Below, piece by piece: positions 9,661 through 63,021 of a DNA stretch of 64,000 nt. Within the stretch, counting starts at the first letter, position 1. Every line of letters starts with the position of its first letter. The stretch is from Schmidtea nova (taxonomy: Eukaryota): the NCBI GenBank assembly GCA_044892505.1, contig CM097882.1, positions 515,034,001 through 515,098,000 on the forward strand. Reading direction: 5' to 3'. The position numbers were made by a program, and so were the translations under genes. The notes under the pieces are model-generated. The model was not told the DNA's origin and did not search any database. It saw only the letters and a list, made by a program, of their open reading frames with translations.

Positions 9661-10339
9661 ATGTGTTTTGGCCGCTTCCAAGATAAAAATAGAAAAAATA
9701 AATATTTTTAATTAGAAAATAAAATTTGTGCATCAAGTCCGCATTTTTAATTGTAATTTATATTAATATTACAGGGTTTTTCACCTAAAAAACTATTATT
9801 TCAAATAAAAAAACTACTATTACAAATACAAAAAACTACTATTTCAAATAAAAAAATACTGGTTACCAAAATGTTAAAATATAGGGTATAGATCGATGAT
9901 TTTGAAAATTATTGATATCAATATTGATATAAGGAATAATTAAAAAATATTTAGTCGCTATGAATAAATCTACCCCGCGTAAAAATAACTATCAGATTAG
10001 ATAAGAAGCAAGATTATCGCAAAACATAGAGCCGGAAAATCGCCGATGCAGATAAGTGCCGACTTAAATATCAGCGTAATTAACAATTTAAAAAAACGGA
10101 AGAATAAATGCTAAGAATATTAGAGCTCCAAAGACAAAGAAAATAACAACGGATAACGAACACTTTATTAAGGAAAAAATTTCACTTGATCGTTCAGTGA
10201 CAACAAAGGCTTTGAAAGGTTGTATTTAAACCGAAAAGAATATAAGCGTGTTACAGTTTTTCGTGCAATTGAAAACTTCTGTTACACACTTCAAAGGGTA
10301 GTTCTGATAACATAAGTACATAATTCTGTGAGGGTTATC

Positions 10340-10992
10340 AGTAGGAGGAAGTGTGGACGAGGGAACAAAGACATATGACGTCATCGCGCGTGTGCATCCA
10401 ATCAAAATCAAGTGACCCCCTGGGGTGTACTTTTTTTTGCGACCCTTCCCAATTTTTTTTACACACAGACGATGAGCCATAAAATTTTTAAGGTCAAATT
10501 TTAAGGACATTTTGAGGACACTTTAAGGTCAAATTTTGAGGACACTTCAAGGACAAGTTAAGGTCAAGGTCATGCTAAGAACAATTTTTAAGGTCAAAAT
10601 CTAAAATTTTCAAAATTTCAAAAACAAAAAACATAAAATTTTACAAAACATTTTTTCAAAAACACCAAGTGAGAATTTATCAACATTTATTAATAAATAC
10701 ACATATATGACAACAATGTTATTCCAACTATGCAATTCTTGCGCTTTTTATCTTCCAAACTGGAGTCATTGATTCTTTTGGATCGATTTTATATCCTTGG
10801 ATGGATATATCAATAAACCAATTTTCATTATCCGTATATTCAACTGATTGAAATGTATCATGAAATTCGGTGTTCCTGTTGTTGATGAATATTGTTTCAT
10901 TGCAAGATAATTTCTTGTTGATTTTCGTCAACACTTTATTGATTGCAACAACATCTTTATAAATCTGACCAATTAAGTTGGAATATTGCGAA
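10340..10992. repeat. Polinton left TIR, outer part
   Basis: Reverse complement of 30020-30679 with scattered substitutions and small indels. Confidence 0.92.
10728..10992 (-). CDS. TIR-encoded ~89 aa ORF, left copy (its MENN start is displaced to 13138-13140 by the insertion)
   Basis: SQYSNLIGQIYKDVVAINK...PVWKIKSARIA is near-identical to the right-TIR copy that starts MENN at 30009. Confidence 0.55.
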
Positions 10993-11180
10993 GTCGACAG
11001 CTTTACCGGATTTGGGACCTTGAAGGAGATTTCGTTTAGCAATAAAACATTTGGTAATAGTGAAACATCTGAACCGGTCGTAAATCAAATTTGTTTTCTG
11101 TTGATTTGATTTGTTATCGTTCCTAACTGGTTTCATTTTAATTGGACTAGATTTGCTGAAAAGATTTTGCATTTTATGAA
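10993..11180 (-). pseudogene. Gypsy-type aspartic protease fragment inserted in the left TIR
   Basis: A one-base frameshift restores N-L-I-(Y)-D-T-G-S-D-V-S-L-L-P, matching the retroviral-type DTG protease motif. Confidence 0.45.
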
Positions 11181-11350
11181 CAATACTATTTTTGCTTTCT
11201 TATTTATACTCGTCATCGTCTGTGTGCAGCCAATCAGGTTCTTGCACATGTCTTGTAAATCAATTGCATATGTCTTGCTAATCGATTGGATATGTATTAA
11301 TAATTGACTTTGTATGCATGTTGATGATTATCTACTGCAATTTCTTTCTA

Positions 11351-12995
11351 CTGTAAAATCCCGAGTATTAGATGCAGCTAATACGTACATTAAGGCAACA
11401 TTTATGAATTTCAGCTAATATGATGTGCAGCTTATACAACTAAAAAACAATTCAAATCGAAGATAAGATTATTTATTTCAATTTTCAACATCACACTCCT
11501 CAAAACCATCACTTTTCATTGTCAATAAAAGTGAAATTTTCTAGTAATTCTACAATGTTTGGATCAGACTCGTTCACATTCATTTCATTTTCTTCAATTT
11601 CAAGAACATCGTCGTCTTCACCGAATGCAACACAAAAACCATTCAAAATGGTGGAAATGTTAACATCTTCCCAAGAGGAAACAATCCATTCGAAAATAGT
11701 ATTCCAGTCAGCTGCTTTCATATTTCCGGACTTAGTATGTTTGATGTTTTCATAATCTTTAATGATCCAATCCTCCCACTTGCGCAATTTTGACTTGAAC
11801 GAACGGTTAACAGTAAGATCTAATGGCTGCACCTTCAATTCTGCAGGTATGAAAGCTACTTTGGATTCCTTCTTAATTTTATCAAGTGTAGTACTGACAA
11901 GATGTGAGCGATGCATATCAAATAAAAGCAATGATGGTACTTTTGGATCCTGGTTCCATGGTGTCTTTGGAGGCAATGTAATTCGACTCTTCCATACTTT
12001 CTTGAGCCATATCTCAAGAGTTTCATGATTCATCCAACCAGATCCATTAGCTGCAATAACAAGCTTTGATTCAGGAATGCAAGTCTTTGGATGTTTCTTT
12101 GTGCCCAAAATAACAAAAGGCGGAAGTTTAGTACCATCTTTGAGAACACAGATTGACGGTAAATCGTTTTTTCTCATGTCCTGTAGTTTTAATTCGGACC
12201 TCCTTGGCACCCTTAGTCTTAATTGTGTACCCTAAAGGCATGTCACATTAAACCGACACTTCATCAAAATTACTGATTTGATTATCGGGCAAATCCTTCT
12301 TTAAATCTGTGATGGTGCTTCTAAACTTGGCCATCTGAAATTCCCAATCTTTCGTTAATTGTTGCTTCGTGGTAGGCCGTCGAACACAAATATTCTTGCG
12401 TTTCATGAAATTATCAGTCCATTGAGAGCTCGCGACAAATCCTTCAATTTTCATCTCTTTGGCAATTACTTGTGCCTGTAAACGAATTCGAACAACCGAC
12501 ACTTGAAGTTCTCGTTCACGTTGAATTAGGATCCATTCGTGTAATTTCGTTTCCAGTTCCGGATATCTAGCGTTACCACCACGCAATGATCTTCGATTTG
12601 GATTCATTGCTTTGATAACAGACTCTTGGGCGATCCATCGTCGAATAACAGTTTCATTAATATCATATCGTCTTGCAACCTCCCGTATGTTTCCTAACTG
12701 ACGAGCTAATTCAGTTTGCCTAACTTCTAACTTCTTTTTTTCTTTGCTGAACTAAAAGATCTTCGTTGTTTCTTTTGTTTTTGTTCAGAATCGTTATCCA
12801 TTTCAATCAAGGATTCAAAAAGTGCAATAAACAATATAAACGATTAAAACAAAATGGTTATTGTTTTTTATTGATATTTGTTTTTTAATGATAGGTTGCT
12901 GATTTTAAAATCAGGTGTTTTCAACGAAAATGGTGCAGCTAATACGTGCTGCGGTTTATACGACTAAAAAAATACATTTTTATAAAAATGTCATC
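11351..12995 (-). mobile_element. pogo/Tigger-family DNA transposon
   Basis: TA followed by CTGTAAAATCCCGAGTATTAG at 11349-11371 (pogo-type terminus); transposase inside; the other end runs into the N gap. Confidence 0.8.
11509..12801 (-). pseudogene. pogo transposase (Brinker-like HTH + CENP-B HTH + DDE_1), frameshifted
   Basis: ATG at 12801 (MDNDSEQKQKKQRRSFS); NIREVARRYDINETVIRRW; YPELETKLHEWIL; NFDEV; GTKLPPFVIL, SGWMN, LLLFDMHRSH, VQPLDLTVNRSFK. Confidence 0.85.
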
Positions 12996-13127
12996 NNNNN
13001 NNNNNNNNNNNNNNNNNNNNNNNNNNNNNNNNNNNNNNNNNNNNNNNNNNNNNNNNNNNNNNNNNNNNNNNNNNNNNNNNNNNNNNNNNNNNNNNNNNNN
13101 NNNNNNNNNNNNNNNNNNNNNNNNNNN
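12996..13127. other. Assembly gap (132 N)
   Basis: Run of N. Confidence 1.
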
Positions 13128-13279
13128 AATTATTTTCCATTATTATTTTCAATAAATATTCAGCATCAAAATTTTATAAAAGTTAATTTTAACTACAAAA
13201 CATCTTTCATAACTCGGTACGTTTTAAGAAAATAAATGCTTTATAAAAAACACAATAAAAAGACACTTTAACTATAAAA
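13128..13279. repeat. Polinton left TIR, inner part
   Basis: AATTATTTTCCATTATT...ACTATAAAA is the reverse complement of 29870-30021 and continues exactly from where 10992 stops. Confidence 0.85.
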
Positions 13280-19042: not shown

Positions 19043-19462
19043 TTAATTTTTTAAATAATCTAAAGCCCCCACCAAACACCCTTTATATGCACAATTTGTA
19101 TGATCTCGATATGGGCATGAAATATTGTCAGGAAAAGTTTCAACTTCCTTAATATTATACTTAATTAATCTTAGGGAGGGGAAATATCTTTTTAAAACAG
19201 CAAGTTTATCTTGATCAGTGACATAGAAAATTGCACCAACATCTTTAATTTCTTTCAAAATACAAGTTGGACAAAAATGATCTTCACCTTCATACCATTC
19301 TAATCTATCAGATTCACCAATTCCAGCCCAAAAAGGAACATCATTATATATCCAATATCTTGGCCGAAAAATATTATTAACATTCATAATACATAATTCT
19401 TTAATAATTATCCCACCGCAATTATCATTATAACCATAAATATCAATAAAATAACAAGTCAT
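19043..19462 (-). CDS. Small DEDD/DnaQ-like nuclease-fold protein of the Polinton
   Basis: Intact 139 aa ORF with YFIDIYGY...IIIKELCI and a C-terminal CPYRDHTNCA, resembling the Cys/His-tailed exonuclease-like ORFs of invertebrate Mavericks. Confidence 0.5.
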   Translation of the reverse strand: MTCYFIDIYGYNDNCGGIIIKELCIMNVNNIFRPRYWIYNDVPFWAGIGESDRLEWYEGEDHFCPTCILKEIKDVGAIFYVTDQDKLAVLKRYFPSLRLIKYNIKEVETFPDNISCPYRDHTNCAYKGCLVGALDYLKN

Positions 19463-19492
19463 TTTTCTAAAACATTTATTAAACTACATTGT

Positions 19493-19830
19493 TTATACTT
19501 TTAACATTGAATTAAGCCATGCAAGACAATGTTGACCACAAGTAATTGTTAATGGATGTTGATACCGAATTCGATTATATACAATCGGTTTACCCAATGT
19601 TTGTAGTCTACTAACTAATAAACCGGGGTAATAACATCCGAAGGGATCGAATGCATACACATTGCTTGGTTTCACGTATACAGCAATCCAATGTTCTCCA
19701 CCTAGAGTAGATGATTGAGTATTGACGACTATGGATTGGTTGACATCTAAATAAGAGATTTTGTCTAGTGGATATACTCCAATAAATTCACTTCCCAATA
19801 AATGTTTTCCAATTCGATTAACCTGAATAG
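19493..19830 (-). CDS. Adenain-like (C5) maturation cysteine protease
   Basis: FIGVYPLD, IVVNTQSS...GEHWIAV (His), FDPFG (Asp), YQHPLTITCGQHC (Gln/Cys). The frame extends upstream as SIQVNRIGKHLLG; the start codon is unclear. Confidence 0.9.
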
Positions 19831-19917: not shown

Positions 19918-20260
19918 TTAAACCAACACTGTTCGATTAGCAGTAATTTGAATTTCATTTTCAAATACTCCATATAATATTACATGTACTGGTGCTTCAA
20001 TAGCTTTAGAAAACTATATCCAATCTCAAATTTCCATTTTGAGGTAATTGACTTTGATTTAAATCGAAATTCGGAGCCAAAACAAATGTAAAGAAAAGGT
20101 ATTTGTTTTTAAAATCGGCTAGTGTTAAACCACAATTTAAATTCTTATCCCATATTTCTGAACATCGACTGCATATATGTAGTACAATAATTATCATTTT
20201 CAAAATCTTGAGTATATGTTTCTCGATAATCAGTGTTTTTCGATGAATAGATCACTACAT
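19918..20260 (-). pseudogene. Major capsid (double jelly-roll) protein, C-terminal remnant only
   Basis: YTQDFENDNY...SMFRNMG, LADFKNKYLFFTFVLAP, GNLRLDIVF-SKAIEAPVHVILYGVFENEIQITANRTVLV*, typical of the Polinton MCP C-terminus. Confidence 0.75.
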
Positions 20261-20466
20261 GTTCTATTTTCAATTCTTTTGTAATCAATCTTACATTGAA
20301 TATAAAATGGAAATCTGTTGTACACAATTGTGAAATCTTGCAATGCAACTTCCCAATTACCATCTAGATAAATCGGATTTTGAAGATTTACCATGAATTT
20401 ACTGGCTTGATTATCTGGATGTATTAGTGGACAGCTATTACTTGGCAGAATAGTATAGAAATTCAC
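20261..20466 (-). pseudogene. Minor capsid (penton) protein, N-terminal remnant only
   Basis: NFYTILPSNS...PDNQASKFMVNLQNPIYLDGNWEVALQDF, typical of the Polinton minor capsid N-terminus. Its GTG start overlaps the integrase TGA. Confidence 0.8.
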
Positions 20467-21517
20467 TTTACTAGATCTTTTGATGATATCCATGACGGGT
20501 TTTGATAGCCATGCCACTTTACGTAGTATTGTTTATCCTTACCCACGAATTTTAGTTTTTAATATTTTTTGAATTCTAAATACAGTAGGCGGAGGAATAA
20601 CTTGTAATTCTTGCTCGTAAAATTTTCCACTAACTACATTATTGTTGAGTCAGAAATAACATACATGACAGGATCTTGGCTAGTATTAATTTTTGAGATC
20701 TGAAATACCTCATCACTCCAATTACTATCAAGATTTTTGATGAATGGCGAAGCGCTAATCTTACTAATTCGAACATGATCACCAATTTTATATTTCGGTT
20801 TCTTTATATTAGTTTTTAATTTGTGAGATCCAGTATTTTTCGTTGAAACATCAACAGGTCTCAATCCATTTATACCTTTGTGTGACGAATGATTATAACT
20901 ATGTATTATTTTTGGCAGTACATCAATCCATGTTTTATTACCTTGATGCACAAAATACTTTTTCAATCGATCTCTTAATGTACGATTAAATCGTTCAACG
21001 TTGGCGGCTTTGAATTGAAAGAACACAGAATAATGATTAATCCCGGCCAAAACTTATTTAACTTTACTATTGTAAAATTCTTTACCTAAATTATAATTTA
21101 CAATGAACAAAATTAGTATATATTCTTACCCAAATCAGTTTGTAAATTCTTTGGACGACCGGACTTAAACATAGTTTTGATTGCAACAGCCATTTCATTT
21201 GCTGATTTAGTTTTAGTAGGAATAGCCCGAGCAAATCTATTGAAAACATCGATACATGTTAAAATATATTTATATCCCTTGTTAATATTTGAATAGGGTA
21301 TCATTTCCATCAAATCCATTTGCCACAAGTCATTAATGCCATATGTTTTATATGCTCTTGTTGGAAATCGTTTCAATGCCCGTTTGTTTAGACTGTATGC
21401 CAGTTGCCCCGATAACCATTTTTGAGTTTCTTTTTTCGAGTTTGGGACTTTTTTCTTTAGCTTTTCGACTCCACTGAAACCGACGGGATCTTTTGGGTTT
21501 GTCCATATCTTCTCCAT
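20463..21517 (-). pseudogene. Polinton retroviral-type integrase with C-terminal chromodomain, frameshifted
   Basis: DLWQMDLMEM, YKYILTCIDVF, LQTDLGK, KAANVERFNRTL, KYKIGDHVRISK, WSDEVF, GKFYEQELQ, FRIQKILK...YYVKWHGY...SWI. Confidence 0.93.
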
Positions 21518-21609
21518 TACAACAAGAAGAATTAAAATTCAATTTAAGATTGACCATTTTTGATTCGAGCAAAAACCGTTTGGAAATCATTTTTATTTTG
21601 ATCAAACAA

Positions 21610-22318
21610 TGTTTTTAGCAAAGAAGCGAGCATCTCGAGATTGTAATCACTAAATTGTCTTTCGTAATGAACACCACGTAACAGAACTGAAAGAGGCTCT
21701 CTGTGATTTGTTTGGCCATTGGTTTGAGATCCAGAGAACTGCGCACTTGAGGGATCTTGATATCATTATTGAGCTTGAATGTCAAGCTTTGCTCTGAAGA
21801 CAAACTCCGATACGATAATATGATTTCGACAATACACTGCTCGGTGCGATAATAAGTTTGATGCTTGAAGTAAAGTTCATAAAAATGTTCCACAAGCCTG
21901 GTTCCGAAGCATATCGACAACATCCTTTCTAGTAATCCAACGCAACCATTGACGAACGCAGCACAATCAGCCATATTTGCAATATTCAATAGCAAAAAAT
22001 TGATTATTCAAAATAATTCCTAAGCGATTCAAAATATTTCAAAGGAAAACTTCCCCACTTGATTATTCAAACAAAAACAATTCTACCAACTCAATTAAAA
22101 TCCATTAAATCACTAGAATTAAAATCAATTTATTCCTAAAAGAAAATGCGCACACCGACGCAAAAAAGCACAGCTCTGCGCACACAGACGCGAGAGTCTA
22201 CAAAAAATAACTAATGCGCACACAGACGCGGACACCAAATAAATATAAAAGTAACATGCGCACACAGACGCGTGTAAAGCTTACAATTCAACAGCCATTT
22301 TTCACTTTGGCTGAAACA
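21610..22318 (-). repeat. 3' LTR of the BEL element (~709 bp)
   Basis: Bounded by TGTTTTTAGC...GCTGAAACA (TG..CA with short inverted ends). The minus-strand PPT GGTGGGGGAAA directly precedes it, and four GCGCACAC(A/C)GACGC motifs lie at ~22146-22272. Confidence 0.75.
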
Positions 22319-25300
22319 TTTCCCCCACCTTGATCCCTTCTAGCGGATCAACCGACCAATTTAGCTCTAGAGGGCAAACCTTGCTTATAGGTCTCAATAT
22401 CTCCTTTCCTCTGCTAAGGATCTTTAACACCCGCACCTTTCCATCTTCTCCGGGACAAACTTTCGCTACTCGTCCAAGCTTCCATGATTTCTTGCATAAT
22501 CCGTCTTCCAATAACCAGATCAAATCTCCGGATTTTAAATCTTTTCCTTCCTTTGCCCATTTCCTTCTATTCCTCCATCCAAGAACAATATCTTGTCTCC
22601 ATCGTCGCCAAAATTTCTCGCTCAAATCCTGAATGATCTGCCATCGCTTTTTCATGCCGGTTTCAGTAAGCTCTATCTTCTCCTCGCTAAACCTTTTATA
22701 ACCGGGCTTGATAAAGTGATTCGGCGTCAATATTTCTTCTTCTTCCGGATCCTCACTCATAGTTGTCAGCGGTCTACTGTTTACCATATCTTCCGCTTCC
22801 GCAATGACAGTTTGCAGCTCCTCGTCCGTTAACTCAGCAACTCCAGCAACAGCTAATAAAGCCTTTTTCGCTTCCTTAACTAATATCTCGTACACCCCTC
22901 CAAAGTGTGGTGCACTGGGAGGGTTAAAAATCCATTGAGTACGTATCAATCTCCACTTTCTCAATTTCACTTGCGGCTCCTACAAAATTCGTCCCGTTAT
23001 CAGACAATATCAAAATGGGGGTTCCGCGAATGCACTGATAAAACTCTCTGTGTCCAGTTGGTGCGACATCTCTAGATGCACCGCTCTTGTCACGAGACAA
23101 GTGAATAAGCACAAATACCGCTTCGCTCTTCGATTCCCCCGCCCTCTTATGACCGTTGTTATTGGTCCTGCGTAATCCACCGCAACTTTTTTAAATGCCT
23201 CTAGAGGTTCATTCACTCTAAATCCAGGGAGTGGCGCCATTATTTGTTCCATTTTCCTTGCTCTTCCCTTTTGACAAATCACACATTCTTTTCTTATCCT
23301 TTTTATCAATTGTCGTCCACCAACAATCCAATACCTTTCGTTCACTTTTGACATCAAATACTCCATACCCCCGTAGTGATTCAATGACTGATGTATCTCT
23401 AATACTATTAACCGAGCCACCCAACCTTTCCCTGAGAGTATGATCGGATACTTTGTCGCCGGATCCATCCAAGTTGCATTTGCCAAACGTTTCTCACTCC
23501 GCGTTATTCCGTCATCCCAAATTTTGGGGCATAATGATTTTAGTGCACTCTCCGATCCCACGAACCTACCCCTCTGAATCTCTTTCCATTCCTCAGCAAA
23601 CTCAATTTTTTGATCGTCAAGGATCAATGTGACCTCCGCATCTTCAATTTCTTCACTTGTAAGTGCCCCATTTTGCCGTTTTGTTTTTTCTCGTTTTATA
23701 TTCTCAATGAATCTTTTCAGCCATGCTCTTGTACGAACCAGTCTTCTCCATTAGGAGTAGGTCTTTGGGTCTAAGCAACTCGTTTTCCAAGCTGACTCTA
23801 AATCATCTCTTGTCGTGGTAAGGAAATAACTCTGTATCCAGCTCTGATTCTTAGTCTCCTGGGCTCGCTTACTTTTCCATTTTGGCCAACTGTCTTCCTC
23901 CTCCTGCAGAAATCTTGGTCCTTCAAACCATACCTTGGAATCTCTAAGTTCTTCTGCTTTCATTCCCCTTGATAGCAAGTCTGCGACGTTTTCTTTCGTT
24001 GGCACATACCTCCACTGTAATCTTCTCGTTGTTCGTTGAATTTCCGCGATTCGGTTCGCAACAAATACCTTGCAATTACGCCTTAATTGCGTTATCCAAT
24101 ACAAGACGTCTTCACTATCCGTCCAGAAGGTGATGTCTTGCATATTTATCTTCAAACATTGTGATACCTTTAGTCCTAATTTCACTCCCAATTCAGCTGC
24201 CAATATTTCCAGTCGCGGAACGCTCACTACCTTAATTGGCGTTACTCTGGATTTAGCTGCGATTAGGTTGGTTTTTACACTTCCCATTTGACTCTCTCTG
24301 ACGTAAGCTACGGCCCCATATGCGCATTTTGAGGCGTCAACAAAAATATGGACCTTCCACTCATTTTTCGTGTCTCCAATTAAACATCTTTCGCATCTGA
24401 TCTCATTTAAAATTGCAAATTCTTTCAGCCACCCTTCGACTTTCCTCAGAAGATCTGGTGGCAATAAGTCATCCCAATCTGTACCAGCTAGCCAAATCTC
24501 TTGCATCAACAACTTACCTTTAATCAGAAAGCTTCCTGCTAATCCCAATGGATCAAAGATTCTGGCTAGGCAACTAAGAAATCCTCGTTTCGAAAGACAT
24601 TGTTGAGTTGGTGGTTTGACATCGTAACTAAATTTATCCTCTGCCGCAACCCAAACTAGTCCCAGGGTTTTTACTGCCACTTTGTTTTCCTCGTTCAAAC
24701 TTAAGAGTTTTGATATCCTCTTCATAGGAATAGTTTCTAATACCTTTTTATTATTAGTGAGCCATTTATTCGTAACCATTCCGGCACTTTCCCAGATACT
24801 AATAATTTCATCCTTGACTCTGATCGCTTCCTCAGACGATTGAAAAGAATCCATCGTATCATCCATGTACGTGGACTCCATTATTATTTCTGCCGCCATT
24901 GGAAACCTTTCTTGAAATTTCTCAGCATTTCGTCTGGTGACTAACTGCGCCAGAAATGGAGATATGTTTAGTCCGAAGACTAACCGTTCAAATTCAAATC
25001 CCTCAGTTTTTCCATTTTCATTCCAAATAAATCTTAAATATTTTCTATCATCTGGATTCACCTTTATTTGAAGATACATTTCTTGTATATCACAAGCAAT
25101 CGCCACCGGATGTTTTCTGAATCGTAATAATATCTCGAATAAATCATTTTGTAGCTTTGGCCCTTGCTCAATAGCATTATTTAAATTAATACCATTACTT
25201 TTCGCTGCAGCATCAAAGACTATTCTAATCTTGGTTGTCTCCTTATCCATCTTAATCACAGGAAAATGTGGCAACCACCACTTTGTCTCACCGAATTCCT

Positions 25301-26626
25301 TCTCTGCCAACAACCTGATATAACCTTTTCGCACGTAGTCATTGAGCACGTCTTTGTAGCTGTCTTTTAACCTACCGTCTTTCATCAACCGATTGTCCAG
25401 ACTTCTCAAACGCTTCTCAGCCATTTTTATATTATCTTGAAGTTGATACTTGTTCTCCCTCCATAATAGGCTAACCGTGAACCTTTCATCCTCGCACGAC
25501 ATACCTTCGATCGCCCTTTGCATTAATATTTCCTCACTCTGGCTGAACTGATTCCTTTCAATGTGAGTCTCCTCAATTTCCCAAAATTGCCGCATCTGAT
25601 CCTCCAATCTCTCTGTTTTAGAAAAATGGCTCTGGACAAAATGAGTGTTGCGGAGCTTGATCTTCATTGATCTTGCCCAGACATGTCCATCCGAGAGGCG
25701 TCAGTCTGGCAACCGGCTCATCCGAATTCCTTCTCTGCCAACAACCTGATATAACCTTTTCGCACGTAGTCATTGAGCACGTCTTTGTAGCTGTCTTTTA
25801 ACCTACCGTCTTTCATCAACCGATTGTCCAGATTTCTCAAACGCTTCTCAGCCATTTTTATATTATCTTGAAGTTGATACTTGTTCTCCCTCCATAATAG
25901 GCTAACCGTGAACCTTTCATCCTCGCACGACATACCTTCGATTGCCCTTTGCATTAATATTTCCTCACTCTGGCTGAACTGATTCCTTTCAATGTGAGTC
26001 TCCTCAATTTCCCAAAATTGCCGCATCTGATCCTCCAATCTCTCTGTTTTAGAAAAATAGCTCTGGACAAAATGAGAGTGTTGCGGAGCTTGATCTCCAT
26101 TGATCTTGCCCAGACATGTCCATCCGAGAGGCGTCAGTCTGGCAACCGGCTCATCCCTCATCCTTCCTACTTCTCGAATAGATCTGTGCAAATGGGGATA
26201 GTCGGCCCCAACTAAAACATCTATCTGCGGTCTTTTCCCAAGAACCGGGAATCGAATGTCCTTTAGGTGCTCCCAGTTATACGCCAGCTTTTGCCAATTG
26301 CATGCTCTTAAGTCCCCCGTGACGCTTTTGACGACCAGAGCCTTAAAGTTGACTTTCACCTTGTTATTATTGCTTGCCAACATCACCTCTATCAGCCTTG
26401 TTTCCAACATTTCCGATTTCCCCCCAATCACGCCAACTAGAATATTTTCCCATTGTCCCCCAACGCCTAATTTCTGAGCAACCCAATCACTAATGTAACT
26501 CACATTACTTGCATCGTCAAGTAATGCATTTACTCGGAATTCCTTCCCTTTATTAATTAATTTAATCGGAATCGTTCTCAATGGCACATACATGTTCTGA
26601 CTTTGTTCTGCGTGACAGGTCACCAT
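22302..26626 (-). pseudogene. BEL/Pao pol (protease, RT, RNase H, integrase, DUF5641-like tail)
   Basis: NALLDDASNVSYI, WWLPHFPVIK..KIRIVFDAAAK, YMDD, IFVDASKCAYGAVAY, VAVDYAGP, CLFTCLVTRAVHLE, SDNGTNFVGA, FNPPSAPHFGGVYE. Confidence 0.93.
25291..26152. repeat. ~430-bp direct tandem duplication inside BEL pol
   Basis: 25291-25720 and 25721-26152 are near-identical (both start CCGAATTCCTTCTCTGCC and end GGCAACCGGCTCAT). One copy lacks 2 nt (ATGAGTG vs ATGAGAGTG). Confidence 0.9.
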
Positions 26627-26629
26627 TGA

Positions 26630-27650
26630 CGTATTTTTATTCTCATCTTTCTTTTGACTGTCATTTATTTTGACCCCTGGGCTATGCAGTAAGACCTGCC
26701 GACAGACAATTAAAACATAACCCGTTATTTTTCACAAACTCATGACGCTCTTTCGCATCATACTTTTAAAAATCTGGACATCGGTTTAAATAATGTTCTC
26801 CTTTGCATTTCTTACATTTTAGTGTCGTTTTTCGTTCTCCACCAGCTTCTACCTTCGGATTGTTATCCACAAAATTTGTAACCCTCTTCTTATTTTCAAT
26901 CTCCTTTCTATTTCCTGGCTTTCGCTCTCCAAACAATATATTCAAAGCCTTGCGATGCCTGTCAGCTTCTCTTTTTACCCATTCTGCCAAGGTTTGTACA
27001 TTTGCCTCCTTCCCTGACTCAATTGCGTGCCCACTGTATCAGCATGGTTTCCGGTAACTTTTTCAACAGTTGGTGATACAGGATTCCATCGTTTAACTCC
27101 TTCTCTCTTTTGGTCTTTGAACGTCAAGATTATATTTCCCAGTAGCTCTTCAAACCGTTCTAGGTCTTCCAATACATTGAGCCTCACTGGAAAGAACCTC
27201 TGTACCGCGTCCAGCATCATTGAATATGTACGTTCTGGTCCACCAAATCTGTCATCCAATAATTTTATTGCCGCTTCAAAGGCTTGAGAGCCATATCCAA
27301 TATAGGCAATTAATTGCAGAGGTTTCCCTTCCAAATACTGTCTTAAGTACAAGTATTTCCTTTCGCTCGTTTCCTCTGTGTCCTCAATGCAAGCTCTCAC
27401 AATTGCTCGCCACCCAGAATACTCCATGATCCTTCCATTAAATACCGGAAGCTGTAAGGGTTTCAACCCTGTCAACAATTTTGGCCTTTCCTTGACCTTA
27501 TCCGCCTGAAGAGATTGTTCCCCAATCTTAAATGATTCCATTTTAACACTCTTCCTTTTTACTAAACGCTAACTCTCCTATTCGGTTAAATTCCGCTTCC
27601 AATCGTTCGAGGTCTCTCTCAATATCTTTTAATGACCAGTCGGTAATTGA
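26630..27650 (-). pseudogene. BEL/Pao gag, N-terminally truncated
   Basis: LKPLQLPVFNG (DUF1759-like), KYLYLRQYLEG, and the CKKCKGEHYLNRCPDF zinc knuckle. Confidence 0.85.
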
Positions 27651-27658
27651 CCCATTGT

Positions 27659-28066
27659 TTATGATTTTGAGGGCTTTCCTAGTAATCCTACACCACCTAA
27701 TAAAGATAATGCTAATGGTAGCAATGCCGCAATAAGCCCTCCGTGTTGTTTATATATTATTTTGCGCATTTGTTTTTTATTTTTAGTATTTACTAGTGAT
27801 AATAATGGTTTCTTGTGTTTGTTCAACACATTTTTATTTGATTTACTGATATTAATTTTACCTTTGACAACTTTAACTATAACATCAAGTAAATCATCAA
27901 TTACATAATTGGGAAACGATTGTAAAATACACATTCTTCTAATGCTTGGAACTTTGAGTAAGGCTTTGAAAAATGGAAAACTGCGATGATTTTTAGATTT
28001 TTTACTTGAAGTTGTCTTTGGCATCTTTGGTGTATCGGGTTTTGAATTGTGTGAAATTAGATTCAT
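27659..28066 (-). CDS. Small basic Polinton virion-type protein with C-terminal Q-x-GG plus amphipathic segment
   Basis: Lys-rich; ILQSFPNYVIDDLLDVIVKVVKG...KHKKPLLSL...KQHGGLIAALLPLALSLLGG, a pattern common in Maverick small ORFs. Confidence 0.7.
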   Translation of the reverse strand: MNLISHNSKPDTPKMPKTTSSKKSKNHRSFPFFKALLKVPSIRRMCILQSFPNYVIDDLLDVIVKVVKGKINISKSNKNVLNKHKKPLLSLVNTKNKKQMRKIIYKQHGGLIAALLPLALSLLGGVGLLGKPSKS

Positions 28067-28191
28067 TTTGAGAAAATTTTCGGTGATTAATTTTTTCGGA
28101 GGCGTGAAACTCGTTTTAGATGGAATTAGTGTTTCACGATTCTTTTTAATAACTTTTCTAAGTTGAATTCTTTGGATGTTTGGATCGTGTT

Positions 28192-28834
28192 TTAAGTATC
28201 ATGATTAATTTCGAACATAAATTTAACTTTGTTTATAAACCATTGCTCCTTCTTTGTTAAAAATATCAGTTCTAACACGTAATTCATCACTACATTGTTG
28301 AGTAAAATCGAGAAAATATATCCATGTGGGACTTTAGTTGCATCTTGAAATGCATTGATCAAGAAATTCCGATTATTAGGGTAAGCCTGTCTAGCAAGAA
28401 AATCGATAACGGTAGCATCTCTAGGATTTTTAAAAATAACTAGATATTGGACATTCAAATTTCGAGTTCGATGACTACCACCCTGGTGAAATAAATTCTG
28501 AGTAATAAAATAACTGTAACTCCTTTATGTCTAGCAATTTTTGTGAATAACTTATTGAAATCCTTCTCTTTATTTGCTTGATACAAATCATCAATAATAA
28601 TTACATCACTTCGTAATCTAGACGACCAGTTTTTATCGAATCCTTTTATTATTGTCATTTTAATCTTACAGAATTGATCTTGAGTCATTCCATGTTCATC
28701 ATCAGCTCCCCTATGCCAATAAATTTTGTTAAATTTTGATTTGAATAATTTTGACTGTAATAATTTACAAACAAAGTTTTTCCACTTCCACTTGGACCGA
28801 CAATTTGATAAACTGCATCATTTCTTAACTTCAT
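28192..28834 (-). pseudogene. FtsK/A32-like genome-packaging ATPase, frameshifted
   Basis: ATG at 28834 (MKLRNDAVYQIV), Walker A GPSGSGKT, Walker B VIIIDDLY, and YLVIFKNPRD...LARQAYP...AFQDAT..PHGY. Confidence 0.9.
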
Positions 28835-28911: not shown

Positions 28912-29382
28912 ATGTTAAGCAACATAAATTACAAAGGAAAATGTTCTGTTTCTCTTATGAAATTTCCAAATGGTAAGCCACAGCAGATTGTAGATAGGAA
29001 AGGTAAGTATCCTATAATATTTTTCAAGTCCGGTAAATGTAGAATAATGGGATGTAAACAACCTCTTAAAGATCAAGATTTATTATATGAAATAAGTGAT
29101 TTATAAATACAATCGATTACAGTTACTACAGATATTGGGAAATTTGTCAATTTACATGAATTGTCGCAAAATCTCTCATGTTCTTATGAACCAGAAATAT
29201 TCCCGGCATTGAGATATATAAAGTATAATCCTTTATGTGTAAACGTATTCAACAGTGGTAAAGTTGTTATACTCGGTATAAAATCATTAAACTATCATGC
29301 TTTGGTTGAAAAAATAATTAACGATATCAAATCGGTTATTGATGACGTAGAATTCTTGAAATTCTTGTTACTTGTTACATAA
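28912..29382 (+). CDS. TATA-binding protein (TBP)-like gene, 156 codons with one in-frame TAA at 29104-29106
   Basis: Two pseudo-repeats: LSNINYKG...IIFFKSGKCRIMGCK and IQSITVTTD...YEPEIFPALRY...VNVFNSGKVVILGIK. ORFs 28912-29106 and 29161-29382 are in the same frame. Confidence 0.8.
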
Positions 29383-29574: not shown

Positions 29575-29865
29575 TTGTTTTTAGAAAAACTGATGGGCGT
29601 TCTGCTTGAAAAAATAGAGGATTTTTACCCGAAACCTATGCGCGAATTGGTTTACTTCGCTCCAGAGCTTCTTCCTTATAAAATATTGGCATTTACCGGA
29701 ATCGATCTCAACAAGGTGTTGCTCGACCATCACCATAATATAGAAGAAGAAGAATCCAGCGCTAGGATTATCTGTGCCTATAGATGTGAAAGTTGCATCA
29801 ATAGGACTCAGAAATACCACAAATGGTTACTCCGAGAGGAGTTAAGAAACTTTTTAGGACAATAA
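29575..29865 (+). CDS. Unknown 96 aa Polinton ORF with C-x3-C-x2-C motif
   Basis: Open frame ending just before the right TIR; contains ICAYRCESC. Confidence 0.45.
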   Translation: MFLEKLMGVLLEKIEDFYPKPMRELVYFAPELLPYKILAFTGIDLNKVLLDHHHNIEEEESSARIICAYRCESCINRTQKYHKWLLREELRNFLGQ

Positions 29866-29869
29866 ATAT

Positions 29870-30679
29870 TTTTATAGTTAAAATGTCTTTTTATTGTGTT
29901 TTTTATAAAGTATTTATTTTCTTAAAACGTACCGAGTTATGAAAGATGTTTTGTAGTTAAAATTAACTTTTATAAAATTTTGATGCTGAATATTTATTGA
30001 AAATAATAATGGAAAATAATTCGCAATATTCCAACTTAATTGGTCAGATTTATTAAGATGTTGCAATCAATAAAGTGTTGACGAAAATCAACAAGAAATT
30101 ATCTTGCAATGAAACAATATTCATCAACAACAGGAACACCGAATTTCATGATGCATTTCAATCAGTTGAATATACGGATAATGATAATTGGTTTTTTGAT
30201 ATATTCATCCAAGGATATAAAATCGATCCAAAAGAATCAATGACTCCAATTTGGAAGATAAAAAGCGCAAGAATTGCATAGTTGGAATAACATTGTTGTC
30301 ATATATGTGTATTTATTAATAAATGTTGATAAATTCTCACTTGGTGTTTTTGAAAAAATGTTTTGTAAAATTTTATGTTTTTTAAAAAAATATTAAGTTT
30401 TTTATGTTTTTGAATTTTTGAAAAATTTAGATTTTGACCTTCAAAATTGACCTTAGCATGACCTTGACCTCACGATGACCTTAACTTGTCCTTGAAGTAT
30501 CCTCAAAATGTCCTCAAAATTTGACCTTAAAAAAAATTATGACTCATCGTCTTTGTGTGTAAAAAAATTTGGGGGGTCGCAAAAAAATACCCCCCCCCAG
30601 GGGTCACTTGATTTTGATTGGATGCACGCACGCGATGACGTCATATGTCTTTGTTCCCCCGTCCACACTTCCTCCTACT
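29870..30679. repeat. Polinton right TIR (~810 bp)
   Basis: Inverted match to 10340-10992 joined to 13128-13279. Confidence 0.92.
30009..30281 (+). pseudogene. TIR-encoded ORF, right copy (in-frame stop at codon 16)
   Basis: MENNSQYSNLIGQIY*DVAINKV...PIWKIKSARIA; TAA where the left copy has AAA, plus a one-codon deletion. Confidence 0.55.
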
Positions 30680-31039
30680 GTTATCGAAGAGAGATTTAAT
30701 TATGCAAACAACTATCTTCAATTAAAAATTCTTTGGACTATTATGTTGTTTTACATTTTTTATCTACGTGGCTATTCCTTTGTAAGCTAAGAATCAAAAA
30801 TATTTATGCGTAAAAGGATATTTAAAGGAACATTTTTCTGGTAAATACAGTTGTAATCTTTTTATCTAACAAGGAGTTGTCTGTTTAAAACAATAGTTTT
30901 TTTGTATTTGTAATAGGTGTTTTTTTATTTGAAATAATAGTTTTTTAAGTGAAATAATAGTTTTTAAGGTGAAAACCTTTATATATGCATTATAATGTAT
31001 ATAAGATATACATTCAGTATATTAAATTAAAAATAAATT

Positions 31040-54394: not shown

Positions 54395-54889
54395 ATGGAC
54401 CCCGTACAACGAGGACAAATGGAAGACATGAAAAGAGAATTATTAATATTAAAAAAAGAAAATAGAAAACTAAAATTCTCGTTGATAATAATAAAATCTG
54501 AGCGGAATAGTCGTACTAGATTATCTGCTATTAATAAAGTCAAGAAGCTCAAGAGTCAAAGAAAACGGCTTGCCAACAAGTTACACAAGCGTCGCGTTGA
54601 GTTGTACATGACCCAGGAAAACCTGCTATTGGCTCAAGATCGGGTTCAACTCTTGCAAACGGAAATTAAATATCTTAATGGAATATTGAAATTTGAAGGT
54701 GAACGAATAGAATTACTGACCAAGATTAAAAATGAGTATGCAAAGAGTTATATGGAACTTCTAGAAGAAAATTGTGCCGGTCTTGATAAAGAACTGGCGC
54801 AGCAAAGACAGAATGATGATCAAAGAAACCGTTCAAATAGCCCATTGTCTATCGCGAATCTCAATGATAACGTTGAACTTGAAATTTGA
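54395..54889 (+). CDS. Intact 164 aa predicted coiled-coil protein, unknown family
   Basis: Uninterrupted ORF in otherwise decayed DNA, heptad-like Leu/Lys/Glu pattern, TTCAG directly before the ATG and AATAAA about 40 nt after the stop. Confidence 0.55.
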   Translation: MDPVQRGQMEDMKRELLILKKENRKLKFSLIIIKSERNSRTRLSAINKVKKLKSQRKRLANKLHKRRVELYMTQENLLLAQDRVQLLQTEIKYLNGILKFEGERIELLTKIKNEYAKSYMELLEENCAGLDKELAQQRQNDDQRNRSNSPLSIANLNDNVELEI

Positions 54890-55249
54890 TAGTGAATAAC
54901 TTCTATTTTAATATTTTTTTAATTTATAATTAATAAAATTTTGGCTGTTCTTTATTCACTCATTATTATTCATAATATAATTAGTAAATATGCTATGCAA
55001 AACCGTGAATGGGTGTGACCAACTAAATCACCTGCTAAGTCATTAAAATGTCAGACTTGTAAGCAGTTTCAGTGAGATTTTAACGTTGAATATGAGTCTA
55101 CGTGTTTCTTTATTCAATACACGACCCTACAGTAGCAACATTCATTTCACAACAAATTACAAATTCTCAATAATCTTTCAATAACTTCAGTATAATTTCG
55201 TTCAGAAATATATGCAGTCTTCTCTCAAAAATGCGATTAATTAATTCCA

Positions 55250-55900
55250 CGTTATATGGAAGTCGGTAATAAAGGTTATAGGTTGGCTGACTACGCATTT
55301 CCAATGACAAGACATGCTTTCAAACAGTCATGTAACATTCGGACCAATTAAAGGATTGTGAAAATATTTTTTGCTTAATTTTATATCTGGTTATTTTTGG
55401 CCAAAGCGAATATTATTAAATAACATTTTAGATTTCTGTTGAGTATTTTATCAATTATTCGGTACTGTTTATCTGACTCCTTGGTGTTCTTAAGATGGAT
55501 TCAAGAAAATAACACAACACAGAAAATTTTATTCGAAGCTAGAATTAACATAATCTTTAATACAACTTCTAGCAACAACAAGTCTAGAAAATTTACAATA
55601 ACTTTTATTGAACTGCTTTTTCCAACTGAGCGCAGGGATGAGTCTCCCAAAGGAAGATCTCCCTTTCTGGTATGCTTTGAAGAATGAATTCAACTTCTAA
55701 ATAATTTAACTTCGCCTTTCACCTCGTTTAACTTTGTATTCTCGATTTATAATTATTTCCTCGCCATTTGTTCTTCGACCACTCTGTCAATGTTTGGGAT
55801 TTGATGAATTTCCCCTATCTGATCAAACTGTCTGGAGGGGTCCTCAAACATTCATAATATATTCCATAATTGCATCAGCATCAACCGATTGGCTTTTTAA
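55250..55900 (+). mobile_element. Possible very degenerate Gypsy-like integrase remnant
   Basis: Only faint traces (FGPIKG near 55340, AGMS near 55630). Confidence 0.25.
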
Positions 55901-58646
55901 GATGATTGCAGTGATTAAATATAAAATATACATTTGAGAAAAGCACTTAAATTAGAATATCAAAATATATTTATATAGACAAAGCTAATTGTTGGGTGTT
56001 GTTTGTCTGTCATTGGTATTCTTATAATATTGATTCAAGAAAAACCCAACGCAATGAGATTTATTCGAAAGTATGACACTCTTTACAACAACTTTTCGAG
56101 ACAATTCTTTGATAATAAGTTTTAATATTTTTGTTCTCAAGACAAATCGATATTTTCAAATTTAATTATTCTCTAAAAATGTTATTATAACATTTTTAGT
56201 TTAAGCATTCTATTCAAATATTTTTATATTCGTAAATTATTTTACAATTTAAATGAATATTTTAAATTTTGAGAATGAAGATATTATCTTTAAAAATGTG
56301 TCCTCTCACAACCCCCTTTCTTAAAGAACTTCTTTATTTTTTCGACATTTTTCTGTATCGTTCTTTTCTGTATTTATCCTGTAATAGATAACACAGGTCA
56401 TGGATTTTCTGTACAACTTGTTACGGGCCTTCATATCTGTCTTTGTCTTTTTTCCCTGGATTCTAAATTTATTAGTACATCTTCCAAATGTTGAATGACC
56501 TCTTTGCTAATGTAACTTCTTGCATTCCTTTTTCTGAACGTCTTTCTTCTTTTTTTGTTGATAATTTTTGGGACACTACTGTTCAGTGAATATTTTCCAT
56601 CCATATACGTGGTGCGCCCAATAAGTCGTGAGACTAATAAAGAAATAATAATAGTAAAAAATTTGATACAGACATATTTAAACTTCAACATATATAGGTA
56701 AAGAAAATGTATTTTGTTTTAATAATCCATTATTGTTTAAGTATATTTTTGCGAACATTCGAAAAATGCCTCAAGTGAAAATCCACAAACCGAAAATACC
56801 AACGGTCGCTATGAACGCTAGGCCACCCCAATCCAGTTATCCCTGTGGTAAGAAGGATTTTGGGACCAAAGTGGGTAGCAAAAAGATGGGCCATGAAATT
56901 CTACCCATAAATATTGAAGAAAATCCGAAAGAAAATAATTTTTCAGAACAAGAAAAATTGAAAACCGAAAATAATAATATTTTAAATATTATGGAAATAT
57001 TTTTTAAAAAAATTACAGAAGTAATAAATAAAAATACGGAAAACAATTCCAAAAATGTCCTCAATCAAGCAAGCGAAAATCCACAAACCGAAAATACCGA
57101 CGGTCAACAATTCCCCGAAAACCTATCTGAAAACATATGCGAGCTCTTCAAAGAATCCAGTGTCCAAAAACTTAGAATCAAAGAATTGGAAGAACAAGTT
57201 AAATCACTTACTAATATAATAAAGAATATAGGAGCCTAACCGATTCTTTATTATATTAGTAACCTAACCAAAACTCCTATGCATTTATAGCTAGTAAATC
57301 AACAACTGCTCAGCAACCGACTCAGAAAACCCTACCGATCAAAAGACCAAAAATGGATGAATCGTATCTCGAAGAAGATTCAAAAAGATCCACTCAAATT
57401 TACGAAGACTTAGATAATCCAATCAGTGAGAAAAGAATCAATAATCTCAAAACTATTCCGAAAAAGAAGGGGAAACTTATTGCATCCAAATTTGATACCC
57501 CAATACAGATACACGAATACAGTCCAATTAATTACCTTCAACAGGCTAGTAGCTCTATACAAAGTCTTAACAAAAAAAGGGATGAATATCTCCGTATTAA
57601 AAAATCAATCCTTACTAAACCAAATCTGGAGAAGTATATCGGAGCTGAAGTTTCACCTAAAGACTTCTCAACAATCAGAAAATTCTTCCTAGCTTCAATA
57701 AGATTCAATTTCAAATCCCACGAAGATAGTGAAAGAGCTTTCTCAATCTTAGAAAGAACACTTAATAAAAACATGGAAAGTATTCAGATTCCAATCAATG
57801 AATGGATGTACAGCCTAAATTGTTTTAGTGTCCCTGAAGACTGGAAATTCCTGAAGAGGAATTCAAAAACAACCTCTCAAGAAGATCTGAACATGATTGA
57901 TCTAATATCAGAGTCAATAATGGAGTACAGATTCAAAAACCAAGAGGATCATAACCAAACAATAAACTTCTTTCAATTTACTATCAAGAGAATTTTTGCA
58001 GGCATAAGTAATAGATTCAAGCTAAAACATTGCCACTCCCAGCCATAGTAACCAATACAATTAATGATAATGACAATGATAATTTCGATCCAGATGACGT
58101 AGACCTTGATGCCTCATCAGACCTTCAAGAACCAGAAGCATCAATATCAAACCTAGCCTGACGACGTGGGAGGGACATAACAAATGCAGTCCTGACCCCA
58201 TCAAAACACCCACCTATGATGTTACCTGAAGCTAGAATTATAATATTCGACATAAATCAAACCAATGCAGAAAACATTAGTCTTCACAACATAATGCCAA
58301 ATCCCTCTGAGCAAATATCAATAACAGGACATCAATCTAATCAAAACAACCCAACTGGAGAAAGCAACGAAATATTTCTTCCCTCGCCTATATGCCATAT
58401 TCAGATTAACAACAATCTAAAATATGCCTGCATTGATCAGCCTTGCAGAATGGAATTTGATGTTCTCTCACATGCTGAACATCATTTCAGAGACAAACAT
58501 ATTCAGATTGACCTAAATGTGTGGAATGCCAAGTCCCAATAATTCGGTATGCTACTAAGGAACACATTTGCAACCACCATCAAGAAAGAAAAATGGCGCA
58601 AATACACAGAACATAAACTATTGTCCCTTCTGAACTAGATATTCCG

Positions 58647-59372
58647 ATGGAAGCAAACTGGATATCCCAAGTAGCCATAGAGGCAAACATCAGAAGCCTT
58701 ATAAACACCTTCGAAAACATTGTTTATATCAATCCTAAAACTGCCAAGCATCTCTTGGATAACAATCGAATTGGGCTATTCAAAGACCTAAAACCCGAAC
58801 AGGTGATAGGCTGGGATATAGTTGTCTGGCTAATCCATTGGAGAAATTGCCATTGGATGGTCTATTTAGCCTGTAAAAAAGACAAAAGATCCATTCTTAT
58901 GGATCCAGGAAACCTTTCAACAATCTCAATGGATCAATTACTAATTCTCAAAAAGAAAATGGATGATACTCTTAGCATTCTAAATGATGAAACACTTATC
59001 ATGGAAACCCTTGATGTCCCTAACGGTTATCCGACTCAAACCAACTCTCATGATTGCGGTCTATACGTAATACAATACATCAGAGACTTTGTAAATTTTC
59101 ATGCCCAAGCAGGATTTAAACAGCCGATTGCAGACGAAATCAGAGACTCTACAACCCAATTGATTAATTTGGAAATTGATTTATTAAAGCATAAGCAGAA
59201 TTACTCACCTGATTCCGAAATTATGGAACTGATAAGAAGTTTTAGACTTCATCAGGTAGACCTCGAATTTGTTATTGATTTTTTCACCCATAGATTTAAT
59301 GCCAATCTCAAACCAATCCGATCTAGAAAAAATGGCCCTATCAGAATTGCCAAATGCTCCTACCAAATCTAA
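58647..59372 (+). CDS. Ulp1-like (C48) cysteine protease domain of the retrotransposon
   Basis: LIHWRNCHWMVY (His), MDP (Asp), QTNSHDCGLYV (Gln/Cys). Confidence 0.85.
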   Translation: MEANWISQVAIEANIRSLINTFENIVYINPKTAKHLLDNNRIGLFKDLKPEQVIGWDIVVWLIHWRNCHWMVYLACKKDKRSILMDPGNLSTISMDQLLILKKKMDDTLSILNDETLIMETLDVPNGYPTQTNSHDCGLYVIQYIRDFVNFHAQAGFKQPIADEIRDSTTQLINLEIDLLKHKQNYSPDSEIMELIRSFRLHQVDLEFVIDFFTHRFNANLKPIRSRKNGPIRIAKCSYQI

Positions 59373-59456
59373 CGATTATTTGCCATAGCCCCTGGAAGAG
59401 CGACAAAAGAAATTCAAAGATCACATTCATCAACCCAAGACCTACCAAGCTCCGAA

Positions 59457-61936: not shown

Positions 61937-61997
61937 TGTCCCATTATCTTCGAAGTTTCGAGATAATTGCTATAGAATTTTTGTATTAATAAATTTT

Positions 61998-63021
61998 AGT
62001 CATTCAATACCGTAGCGTTTTTCGCTTTCTCTTTCTGAAAGGAAAAAATAGATAAGAGGTTCTTTCTGAACTGAAAGCTGTTTACCAACAAGAGTGCCCA
62101 TCCACAGAAACAATTTATCGTTGGTTCAATTACTTTCAGAGTGGTAGAACCTCCGTGGTGGACGAAGAAAGATCTGGAAGACCCTCAGAAATTGATGAAA
62201 AAATAACGCAAAAGCTGCAGACAATCGTGCAAAACGAGAGAAAAATAAGGACGAGAGAGCTCACAATCCGTCTAAATGTGAGCAAAGGCACTGTGCATAC
62301 TCTCCTCACTGAAAGTGGTATTCGAAAACTATGTTCCCGTTTTGTGCCACGCTTCTTAACAGTGGAAATGCTACAACGACGCCTGGAATGCTGCTTGGAG
62401 AATCTGCAGATCAGGACCAATGTTGGAGTCCGTTTCATTGATAATATTATCACTGTGGACGAGGCACCGTTTTCCCTTTATGTCCCCGAATCTAAAAGAG
62501 TCTCAAGAATGGAAACTGCCAGGAGAAAGCAGCTCACTGAAAATGCGGTCCTCAACTTGCCACCGAAAGGCTCTCATGCTGACGGTGTTTTGGGACGCCA
62601 ATGGCATTATTTTGACTGACTTTGCTGAATCTGGCGTGAAGATCAATAGTTCTTACTACTCCAACATCGTGCAGCAAGCAAGGAAGGCACGACGCAAGAG
62701 CAGAGTGTGTGATCTCTATTTTTTACACGATAATGCAATATACACCAGCAGCGTTTCCATGGCCAAAATTGAGCGTTGCGGGCTCAATTTGCTTCCGCAT
62801 CCACCATTCAGCTCCAATTTGGCTCCCTCCGATTTTTTCCTGTTTAACCATCTTAAGAAGCATCTGCGGGGCCAGGTGTTTGTCAACAAACATGATTCGA
62901 GAGCAGCCGTGGAGAGTTTCTGGGAGAAAAGCCTCCAGAATTCTTCAAAAACGCCTTCGAAAACCTTGTTATTTGCTGGGAAAATTGTGTCAGTGAAGGA
63001 GGAAATTATTTTGAGAAATGA
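61998..63021 (+). pseudogene. mariner D,D34D-type transposase, disrupted
   Basis: QYRSVFRFLFLKGK, TIYRWF..F.SGRTSVVDEERSGRP, SRFVPRFL, ITVDE, HDNA...PHPPFSSNLAPSDFFLF, and a GGNYFEK* end. Confidence 0.92.

Follow-up and report, generated by a model that had tools for sequence, protein, structure and literature searches.

A reading frame resembling the TATA-binding protein (TBP) lies at positions 28912–29382 (+) of the analyzed window, a term used here for the whole 64,000-nucleotide stretch of Schmidtea nova DNA. An earlier note, made from the letters of this stretch, had taken the frame for a TBP homologue encoded by a Polinton. The question raised by the locus is whether a mobile element possesses a basal transcription factor of its own and, if so, which genes such a factor would serve.

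Organization of the Element Carrying the TBP-like Gene

The frame is located within a Polinton/Maverick element (10340–30679) with AGT...ACT ends and the 6-bp TSD GTTATC on both sides (10334–10339 and 30680–30685); thus, its placement inside the terminal inverted repeats (TIRs) had been recognized correctly. A pogo-like DDE element, together with a masked stretch, interrupts the left TIR (10340–13279) from approximately position 11350, and the right TIR (29870–30679) has an internal deletion relative to the siblings. The minus strand carries a frameshifted gene of protein-primed family B DNA polymerase (PolB, PF03175; 13612–17552), a conserved 139-aa accessory gene (19043–19462), which is MAEL/DEDD-like as a lead only and often adjoins the TBP-like gene in other lineages, and the gene of an adenain-type cysteine protease (PF00770; 19496–19867). 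These are followed on the same strand by the 3' remnant of a double-jelly-roll major capsid gene (19921–20243), the bulk of which is deleted here, the 5' remnant of a putative minor capsid (penton) gene (20245–20493), a broken rve integrase gene (PF00665; 20466–21517), a conserved basic accessory gene (27740–28165; 181 aa in siblings), and a frameshifted A32-like packaging ATPase gene (28226–28834; PF04665 matched on a sibling). The capsid protein of a sibling matched the double-jelly-roll fold (E = 9e-15). The penton gene, which we take to be such by its position and motifs, had no Pfam match as a 340-aa candidate protein. A nested BEL/Pao retrotransposon (21552–27630, −) is an insertion outside the system.

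A 90-aa Cys/His-rich frame (29593–29865, +), probably a second exon, lies after the TBP-like gene. A 147-aa gene is present in both TIRs (10731–11172, −, with a remnant at 30021–30278, +); it gave weak Atlas leads to poxvirus I3 and DUF2738 single-strand DNA-binding proteins, and in other elements it is often found beside the TBP-like gene. Long TIRs, AG...CT ends, and a 6-bp TSD were found in the window and, with both ends captured by pattern, in 2 of 10 sibling stretches. The element at 10340–30679 is a Polinton, since PolB, rve, adenain, the packaging ATPase, and a capsid remnant are combined in it with TIRs and a TSD. It is decayed, as seen from the frameshifts, the deletion in the capsid region, and the BEL/Pao and pogo-like insertions. 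Elsewhere in the window (54395–63117), a cluster of plus-strand frames of 108–557 aa, most of which sit between inverted arms at 56605–56645 and 63077–63117, probably represents another mobile element.

The TBP-like Frame and Its Predicted Fold

The TBP-like gene consists of 156 codons without introns, is oriented head-to-head with the ATPase gene, and is interrupted by a premature stop (codon 65) that was found in 1 of the 30 copies examined. The window copy is a dead pseudogene. Searched against Pfam as a read-through with the internal stop entered as X, the frame matched PF00352 at 58.5 bits (cut-off 22.9, E = 6e-16) in the C-terminal repeat only. The AlphaFold2 model, built on an open-frame sibling and 69 relatives rather than on the window copy, had a mean pLDDT of 97.3, and a two-repeat saddle in a single chain was seen in it. 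The model was matched to TBP by Foldseek (E = 1.9e-9) and by VIA (Z = 12.6, rmsd = 2.6 Å, with an alignment covering 144 of the 156 residues); the best-scoring row other than TBP had Z = 6.1. By its Pfam match and this model, the window frame corresponds to a TBP-fold protein; it belongs to a distinct family, hereinafter mini-TBP. The description given in the earlier note, that is, an intronless 156-codon frame with one internal stop, containing both of the quoted TBP-repeat motifs and devoid of an N-terminal extension, was confirmed in full, as was the retention of three of the four DNA-intercalating Phe residues: F38, F97, and F113 are kept, and the fourth position is a conserved Pro.

Distribution of the TBP-like Gene among Polintons

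In the genome search with the DNA of the TBP-like gene, 40 of 3285 candidates were scored and 30 loci were fetched, whereas in the Pfam TBP search, 150 of 14,002 candidates were scored and 30 loci were fetched; neither candidate count is a copy number. Among the 29 copies other than that of the window, 26 had an open 156-aa frame, 2 were frameshifted, and 1 had a different stop. With 20 kb of surrounding sequence included, ten copies proved to be TIR-bounded elements of approximately 11–19 kb, in which the TBP-like and ATPase genes are arranged head-to-head. The Pfam search loci comprised 7 host TBP/TRF-like genes and 23 further element subfamilies (49–74% identity), 20 of which had an ATPase gene within 1.5 kb of the TBP-like gene. 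One 29-mer had 84 exact matches in the genome.

Eighty-three relatives were found at 37–73% identity among 97 candidates. A profile search yielded 59 clusters at E ≤ 1e-30 and reached longer forms that keep the N-lobe helices, the best 150 relatives being 75–388 aa long. Of the 55 metagenome loci, many of which are near-duplicates, so that the counts are not independent, 24 contained a Polinton core gene, 13 contained accessory genes only, and 18 contained neither, 16 of the latter being shorter than 2 kb; among the 20 loci of at least 3 kb, the corresponding numbers were 15, 3, and 2. The gene order varied: the TBP-like gene was next to the ATPase gene, after the protease and 139-aa genes, or next to the 147-aa gene. 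Two 3 kb contigs (L067 and L073) carried the TBP-like gene and no recognized Polinton gene; their neighboring frames may be accessory regions or belong to another element type.

None of the 30 clusters looked up had an NCBI or UniRef member. Scans of IMG/VR returned only five distant TBPs, on contigs resembling large viruses, as well as three distant ATPases with which no TBP-like gene was detected; IMG/VR scans with the capsid protein and its alignment gave no match. The prokaryote genome scan revealed no relative of the mini-TBP family, and the plasmid scan revealed haloarchaeal TBPs at 27–38%. It should be noted that Polinton fragments were encountered within bacterial metagenome-assembled genomes (L182, L183, and L184) and are most likely mis-binned eukaryotic DNA. 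The survey of siblings and distant Polintons bore out the expectation of a recurrent gene: the mini-TBP gene is common to a broad Polinton lineage.

Phylogeny and Selection

In the careful tree of 25 rows, the family was placed on a long branch apart from cellular and large-virus TBPs (support 100/100), and the sampled large-virus TBPs grouped with cellular TBPs, not with the mini-TBP family. A 72-row tree came from a quick search only; three of its rows (L053, L031, and L072) are labelled Polinton-linked, yet no core gene was present on their contigs. The topology uniting the element copies of this genome and four host genes in one clade was rejected (p-AU = 1e-64), in keeping with the absence of grouping with host TBP/TRF genes; a sister position of the whole family to the host TRF-like genes was not rejected (p = 0.37). 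The host has two divergent TRF-like paralogues with cores largely in single frames (L113:1207-1818 and L114:1285-1737), and its TBP genes (L111, L112, and L115) contain introns.

The dN/dS ratio was 0.14–0.46 in 8 pairs with dS < 0.6 and 0.14–0.58 in 97 of 231 pairs, with saturated and near-identical pairs left out; these values indicate that the mini-TBP family is under purifying selection. The 28 near-identical siblings, compared in-frame, had a nonsynonymous-to-synonymous ratio of 0.54 and 2 stops; therefore, many copies are decaying. The premature stop of the window copy and the intronless state of the gene would also suit a one-off retrocopy of a host TBP or a dead, functionless passenger; however, with 26 of 29 siblings open, a dN/dS ratio of 0.14–0.46, presence of the gene in distant elements, and rejection of the host grouping, this explanation retains a vanishing probability.

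Substitutions on the DNA-Binding and TFIIB-Binding Surfaces

Alignment with canonical TBPs and the model showed that the short form is devoid of N-lobe helices 1 and 2, whereas longer relatives keep both. In 70 sequences, the intercalating residues F38, F97, and F113 were conserved in 69, 70, and 70 cases, respectively, and the first Asn of the N-lobe DNA face was kept. In terms of yeast TBP numbering (PMC12529657, Table 1), the substitutions were V71 to N (69/70), F99 to P (69/70), V122 to R (69/70), T124 to M (70/70), N159 to S (69/70), V161 to T (65/70), and L205 to N (70/70). Since seven DNA-face positions are fixed as other residues, the DNA face appears to be re-tuned and more polar, and an altered sequence preference may be inferred. 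The glutamates of the C-lobe stirrup were near-invariant (E93: 66 Glu and 4 Asp; E95: 69 of 70).

TBP and TFIIB are a textbook, DNA-dependent pair. As stated in the text available for PMC7221094, TFIIB is contacted through two C-lobe glutamates of TBP, and TFIIA, TAF1, Brf, Mot1, and NC2 are contacted through the N-lobe and the helix 2 patch; the known viral TBPs conserve both glutamates poorly (approximately 40%), which the same text attributes to their partner being a viral TFIIB. Among the 35 frames scanned, there was no Pfam match to TFIIB, although a strongly diverged TFIIB could escape such a scan. The genome search for the TFIIB family yielded 25 candidates with 6 matches, versus 14,002 candidates for TBP, and the host TFIIB gene was found split by introns.

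The two long-form genes read in their context, L079:25-540 and L085:747-1238, keep both N-lobe helices, are Polinton-linked, and share the ATAAAC word described below; therefore, the loss of the helices is later than the alteration of the DNA face.

A TATA-like Word Upstream of Virion Genes

The word ATAAAC(A/G) was scored within 100 nt upstream of non-redundant gene starts, with out-of-register or truncated starts dropped. It was present upstream of the ATPase gene in 16 of 16 cases, 15 of them at 31–36 nt before the ATG, and upstream of the capsid gene in 8 of 8; the frequencies for the other genes were 8/10 (139-aa gene), 11/14 (181-aa gene), 6/7 (132-aa gene), 5/6 (penton), and 3/6 (protease), with a background of 20 out of 846 windows outside the element (2.4%). 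In the decayed element of the window, the putative late-promoter word ATAAAC(A) is preserved on the minus strand before the 181-aa gene (28230–28236, within the ATPase 3' end), before the integrase region (27656–27662, with a second one at 27747–27753), before the penton gene (20530–20536, within the integrase 3' end), and before the 139-aa gene (19490–19496), and the site upstream of the ATPase gene is gone via a short deletion. Near 27659 (−) of the window, as well as at L092:5981-6214 (−), a short frame beginning with Met-Gly follows the integrase word; it overlaps the integrase start, recurs in other elements, and possibly encodes a myristoylated virion protein or is a first exon.

The upstream region of the TBP-like gene itself contained the word in only 2 of 41 cases. 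A canonical TATA-like box was found there in 18 of 41 cases and the initiator-like word TCAYW in 32 of 41, versus 2 of 16 for each upstream of the ATPase gene; the window copy has no canonical TATA box in its own upstream region. In 13 elements, the late strand contained 65 occurrences of TATAAACR and the opposite strand 3, whereas sister words leaned to the late strand by at most approximately 2:1. TATAAA was contained in 53 of the 65 sites, the seventh base was fixed as C, and the word was not concentrated at the element termini. A plain both-strand count in a single element (L066) was not significant (10 versus 5.95 expected; 18 of 200 shuffles reached 10).

Two trivial origins of the word were rejected. 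A polyadenylation signal is incompatible with the absence of a preceding A in all 65 sites (0/65) and with the occurrence of the word before the ATPase gene, as that strand has no gene terminating upstream of it. Nor is the word explained by the encoded protein sequence, given its intergenic position before the ATPase gene and the variation, judged by eye, of the residues encoded elsewhere (YKQ, DKQ, HKQ, and INK).

A second Polinton class of the same genome, with a PF21738 capsid and read at 10 places, served as a TBP-less control. Seven of these stretches were devoid of a TBP-like gene; the matches in the other three adjoin a first-class ATPase gene and were therefore taken for neighboring elements. 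The word was absent before all 30 gene starts (hand-picked, from 6 of the 10 stretches), with one unassigned frame outside these 30 having it upstream, and in 27 of the 30 starts a T-A-run abutted the ATG. The control elements have a different virion module; since they are close kin, they amount to approximately one independent contrast. The start-fused words of this class (L153–L158 and L161–L166; e.g., G000 C3:29274100-29288900), of the TATAAAATG/TAAAATG type in 27 of 30 starts, are reminiscent of poxvirus late promoters. L079, with the long-form gene and an ATPase of 37% identity to that of the present element, had four word sites, all on the coding strand, whereas L182 and L183 (ATPase 36–37%) had no word before the ATPase gene and no TBP-like gene in fragments of 7.9 and 3.2 kb, which do not cover the rest of the element. 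At the level of sequence, the strand, the position, and the co-occurrence of the word with the TBP-like gene are established.

These data bear on three further explanations. The word may be read by some other factor, such as a helper-virus polymerase or the product of the 139-aa or 90-aa gene, its tie to the TBP-like gene reflecting shared ancestry only. Virophages, which copy the late promoters of their helper viruses, offer a precedent, and gene and word could be co-inherited with the virion module, the control being phylogenetically thin; nevertheless, the simplest reader for a TATA-like word spaced like a TATA box is the TBP-fold protein encoded by the same element, and the tie holds in L079, the ATPases of L079 and of the word-less L182 being equally distant, so that another reader is highly unlikely. 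A second possibility is that mini-TBP, once bound to the word, serves to repress or delay the structural genes, or to bend the DNA in aid of replication, integration, or packaging, and does not recruit Pol II. The loss of half of the N-lobe speaks for it, as a protein of this kind may be unable to initiate without TFIIA; it is nevertheless decidedly unlikely, since the spacing between the word and the start codons is that of a TATA box, the sites are confined to the coding strand and show no concentration at the termini, and the TFIIB glutamates are conserved.

The ATAAAC word is close to the canonical TATAAA and might be readable by host TBP. This leads to the third explanation, which is unlikely as well, namely, that host TBP/TFIID reads ATAAAC as a weak TATA box while mini-TBP acts as a decoy, sequestering host TFIIB or covering the TATA boxes of the host so as to dampen host transcription or defence. 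Retention of the TFIIB glutamates with loss of the TFIIA/TAF surface would also fit a dominant-negative protein, as would the TATAAA inside 53 of the 65 sites fit reading by the host. However, a TFIIB sponge has no need of near-invariant, non-canonical DNA-face residues; the word accompanies the TBP-like gene even in distantly related elements, and none of the 30 genes of the TBP-less class is preceded by it; and the seventh base is fixed as C, with the TBP-like gene itself avoiding the word (2/41).

Putative Late-Promoter Mechanism

The explanation preferred here is that mini-TBP serves the element as a late-promoter factor of its own, with (T)ATAAAC(A/G) before the packaging, capsid, protease, and integrase genes as its predicted binding site; from the sequence evidence, we consider it probable. 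Because a private TATA-like word precedes the capsid and packaging genes, mini-TBP likely switches them on via host RNA polymerase. In the early phase, host TFIID and Pol II would act on the TBP-like gene, the promoter of which would be an ordinary one of the TATA/initiator type. The protein would then bend the ATAAAC word by means of its three Phe residues and its re-tuned, more polar DNA face and would recruit host TFIIB and Pol II via the two conserved C-lobe glutamates, the host factors being proposed because no element-encoded TFIIB or polymerase was detected. Since the N-lobe helices are missing, mini-TBP would be out of reach of TFIIA, TAF1, Mot1/BTAF1, and NC2, and the outcome would be a two-step early/late cascade. 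The first option of the earlier note, direction of Pol II to the late promoters of the element, gains indirect support from the strand and position specificity of the promoter word; its second option, competition with host TBP, may also apply.

For the more general proposal, the chances appear to be even: a widespread animal Polinton lineage would run an early/late cascade by means of a single TBP of its own of 145–156 aa and a private ATAAAC box, relying on TFIIB and Pol II of the host in place of viral counterparts and being immune to TFIIA, TAF1, Mot1, and NC2. If so, mini-TBP would be among the smallest two-lobed TBPs, forming a one-protein orthogonal promoter system and providing sequence evidence of a regulated virion-making programme kept by "transposons". 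How the capsid genes of Polintons are timed and whether animal Polintons pass through a real viral cycle are open questions in the field. A dedicated factor with a matching word would bring them within reach of tests requiring a single small protein and short oligonucleotides. In addition, mini-TBP is a natural deletion experiment on the TBP surfaces required for Pol II initiation and a candidate orthogonal transcription tool.

Comparison with Known Systems

The TBPs known from viruses are those of large viruses, which supply either a TFIIB of their own or a complex of several proteins; a late switch achieved with one protein by a 15-kb element would be a new design. In print, the one direct precedent among the matches listed was a bare figure-legend label: in the available text of Starrett 2021 (PMC8502044; bioRxiv 10.1101/697771), the name "TBP" appears in the legend to Figure 5 for a gene of MELD viruses, which is not described further. 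The label refers to the same element class (Polintons/adintoviruses) and belongs to a section on non-animal datasets; that text does not name the element and says nothing of a family, structure, motif, or mechanism, and its wording for the animal adintovirus maps, as far as available, includes no TBP label. The text available for PMC10675990 mentions TBP in mirusvirus-like elements, and that for PMC12917281 covers poxvirus VITF-3 and leaves Polintons unmentioned. Among the matches listed, in a literature scope that excluded subscription journals and Repbase, there was no description of a Polinton TBP family beyond the legend label. The Polinton-borne TBP-like family with a matching promoter word is real, conserved, and apparently undescribed.

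Cellular and archaeal TBPs (PF00352; PDB 7egb_P, 1cdw, and 2z8u) share with mini-TBP the two-repeat saddle (Z of approximately 12.5 over 144 residues), three intercalating Phe residues, the EPE stirrup of the C-lobe, and the first Asn of the N-lobe. They differ in sequence (approximately 26% identity); mini-TBP has a short form without N-lobe helices 1 and 2, Pro at yeast F99, and six further changed positions on the DNA face, and it is borne by a mobile element. The TBPs of Nucleocytoviricota and mirusviruses are likewise virus-encoded TBP folds (BFVD matches to E = 7e-8); however, their partner TFIIB is mostly encoded by the virus itself, and conservation of the glutamates is approximately 40% (PMC7221094, as far as its available text goes), whereas no TFIIB was detected in mini-TBP elements, and their glutamates are near-invariant.

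A functional parallel is offered by KSHV ORF24, EBV BcRF1, and CMV UL87, which, according to the available text of PMC12529657, are viral TBP mimics reading a variant TATA word at late promoters with host Pol II. ORF24 carries polar residues at four of the substituted positions of the DNA face (V122, T124, V161, and L205; PMC12529657) but, as described there, is a 752-aa protein with extra domains that needs several viral partners, and its model is described as TFIIB-incompatible. Mini-TBP, in contrast, has 145–190 aa, stands alone, although a partner may exist, and keeps the TFIIB glutamates; the large multidomain build of herpesvirus vTBP with a Pol II-binding N-terminal domain was not found in the 156-aa window protein. 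No sequence kinship between mini-TBP and the mimics of beta- and gammaherpesviruses was shown, and their resemblance is likely convergent. By analogy, mini-TBP would work like a herpesvirus late TBP mimic while standing outside that family, and it is not a canonical TBP either.
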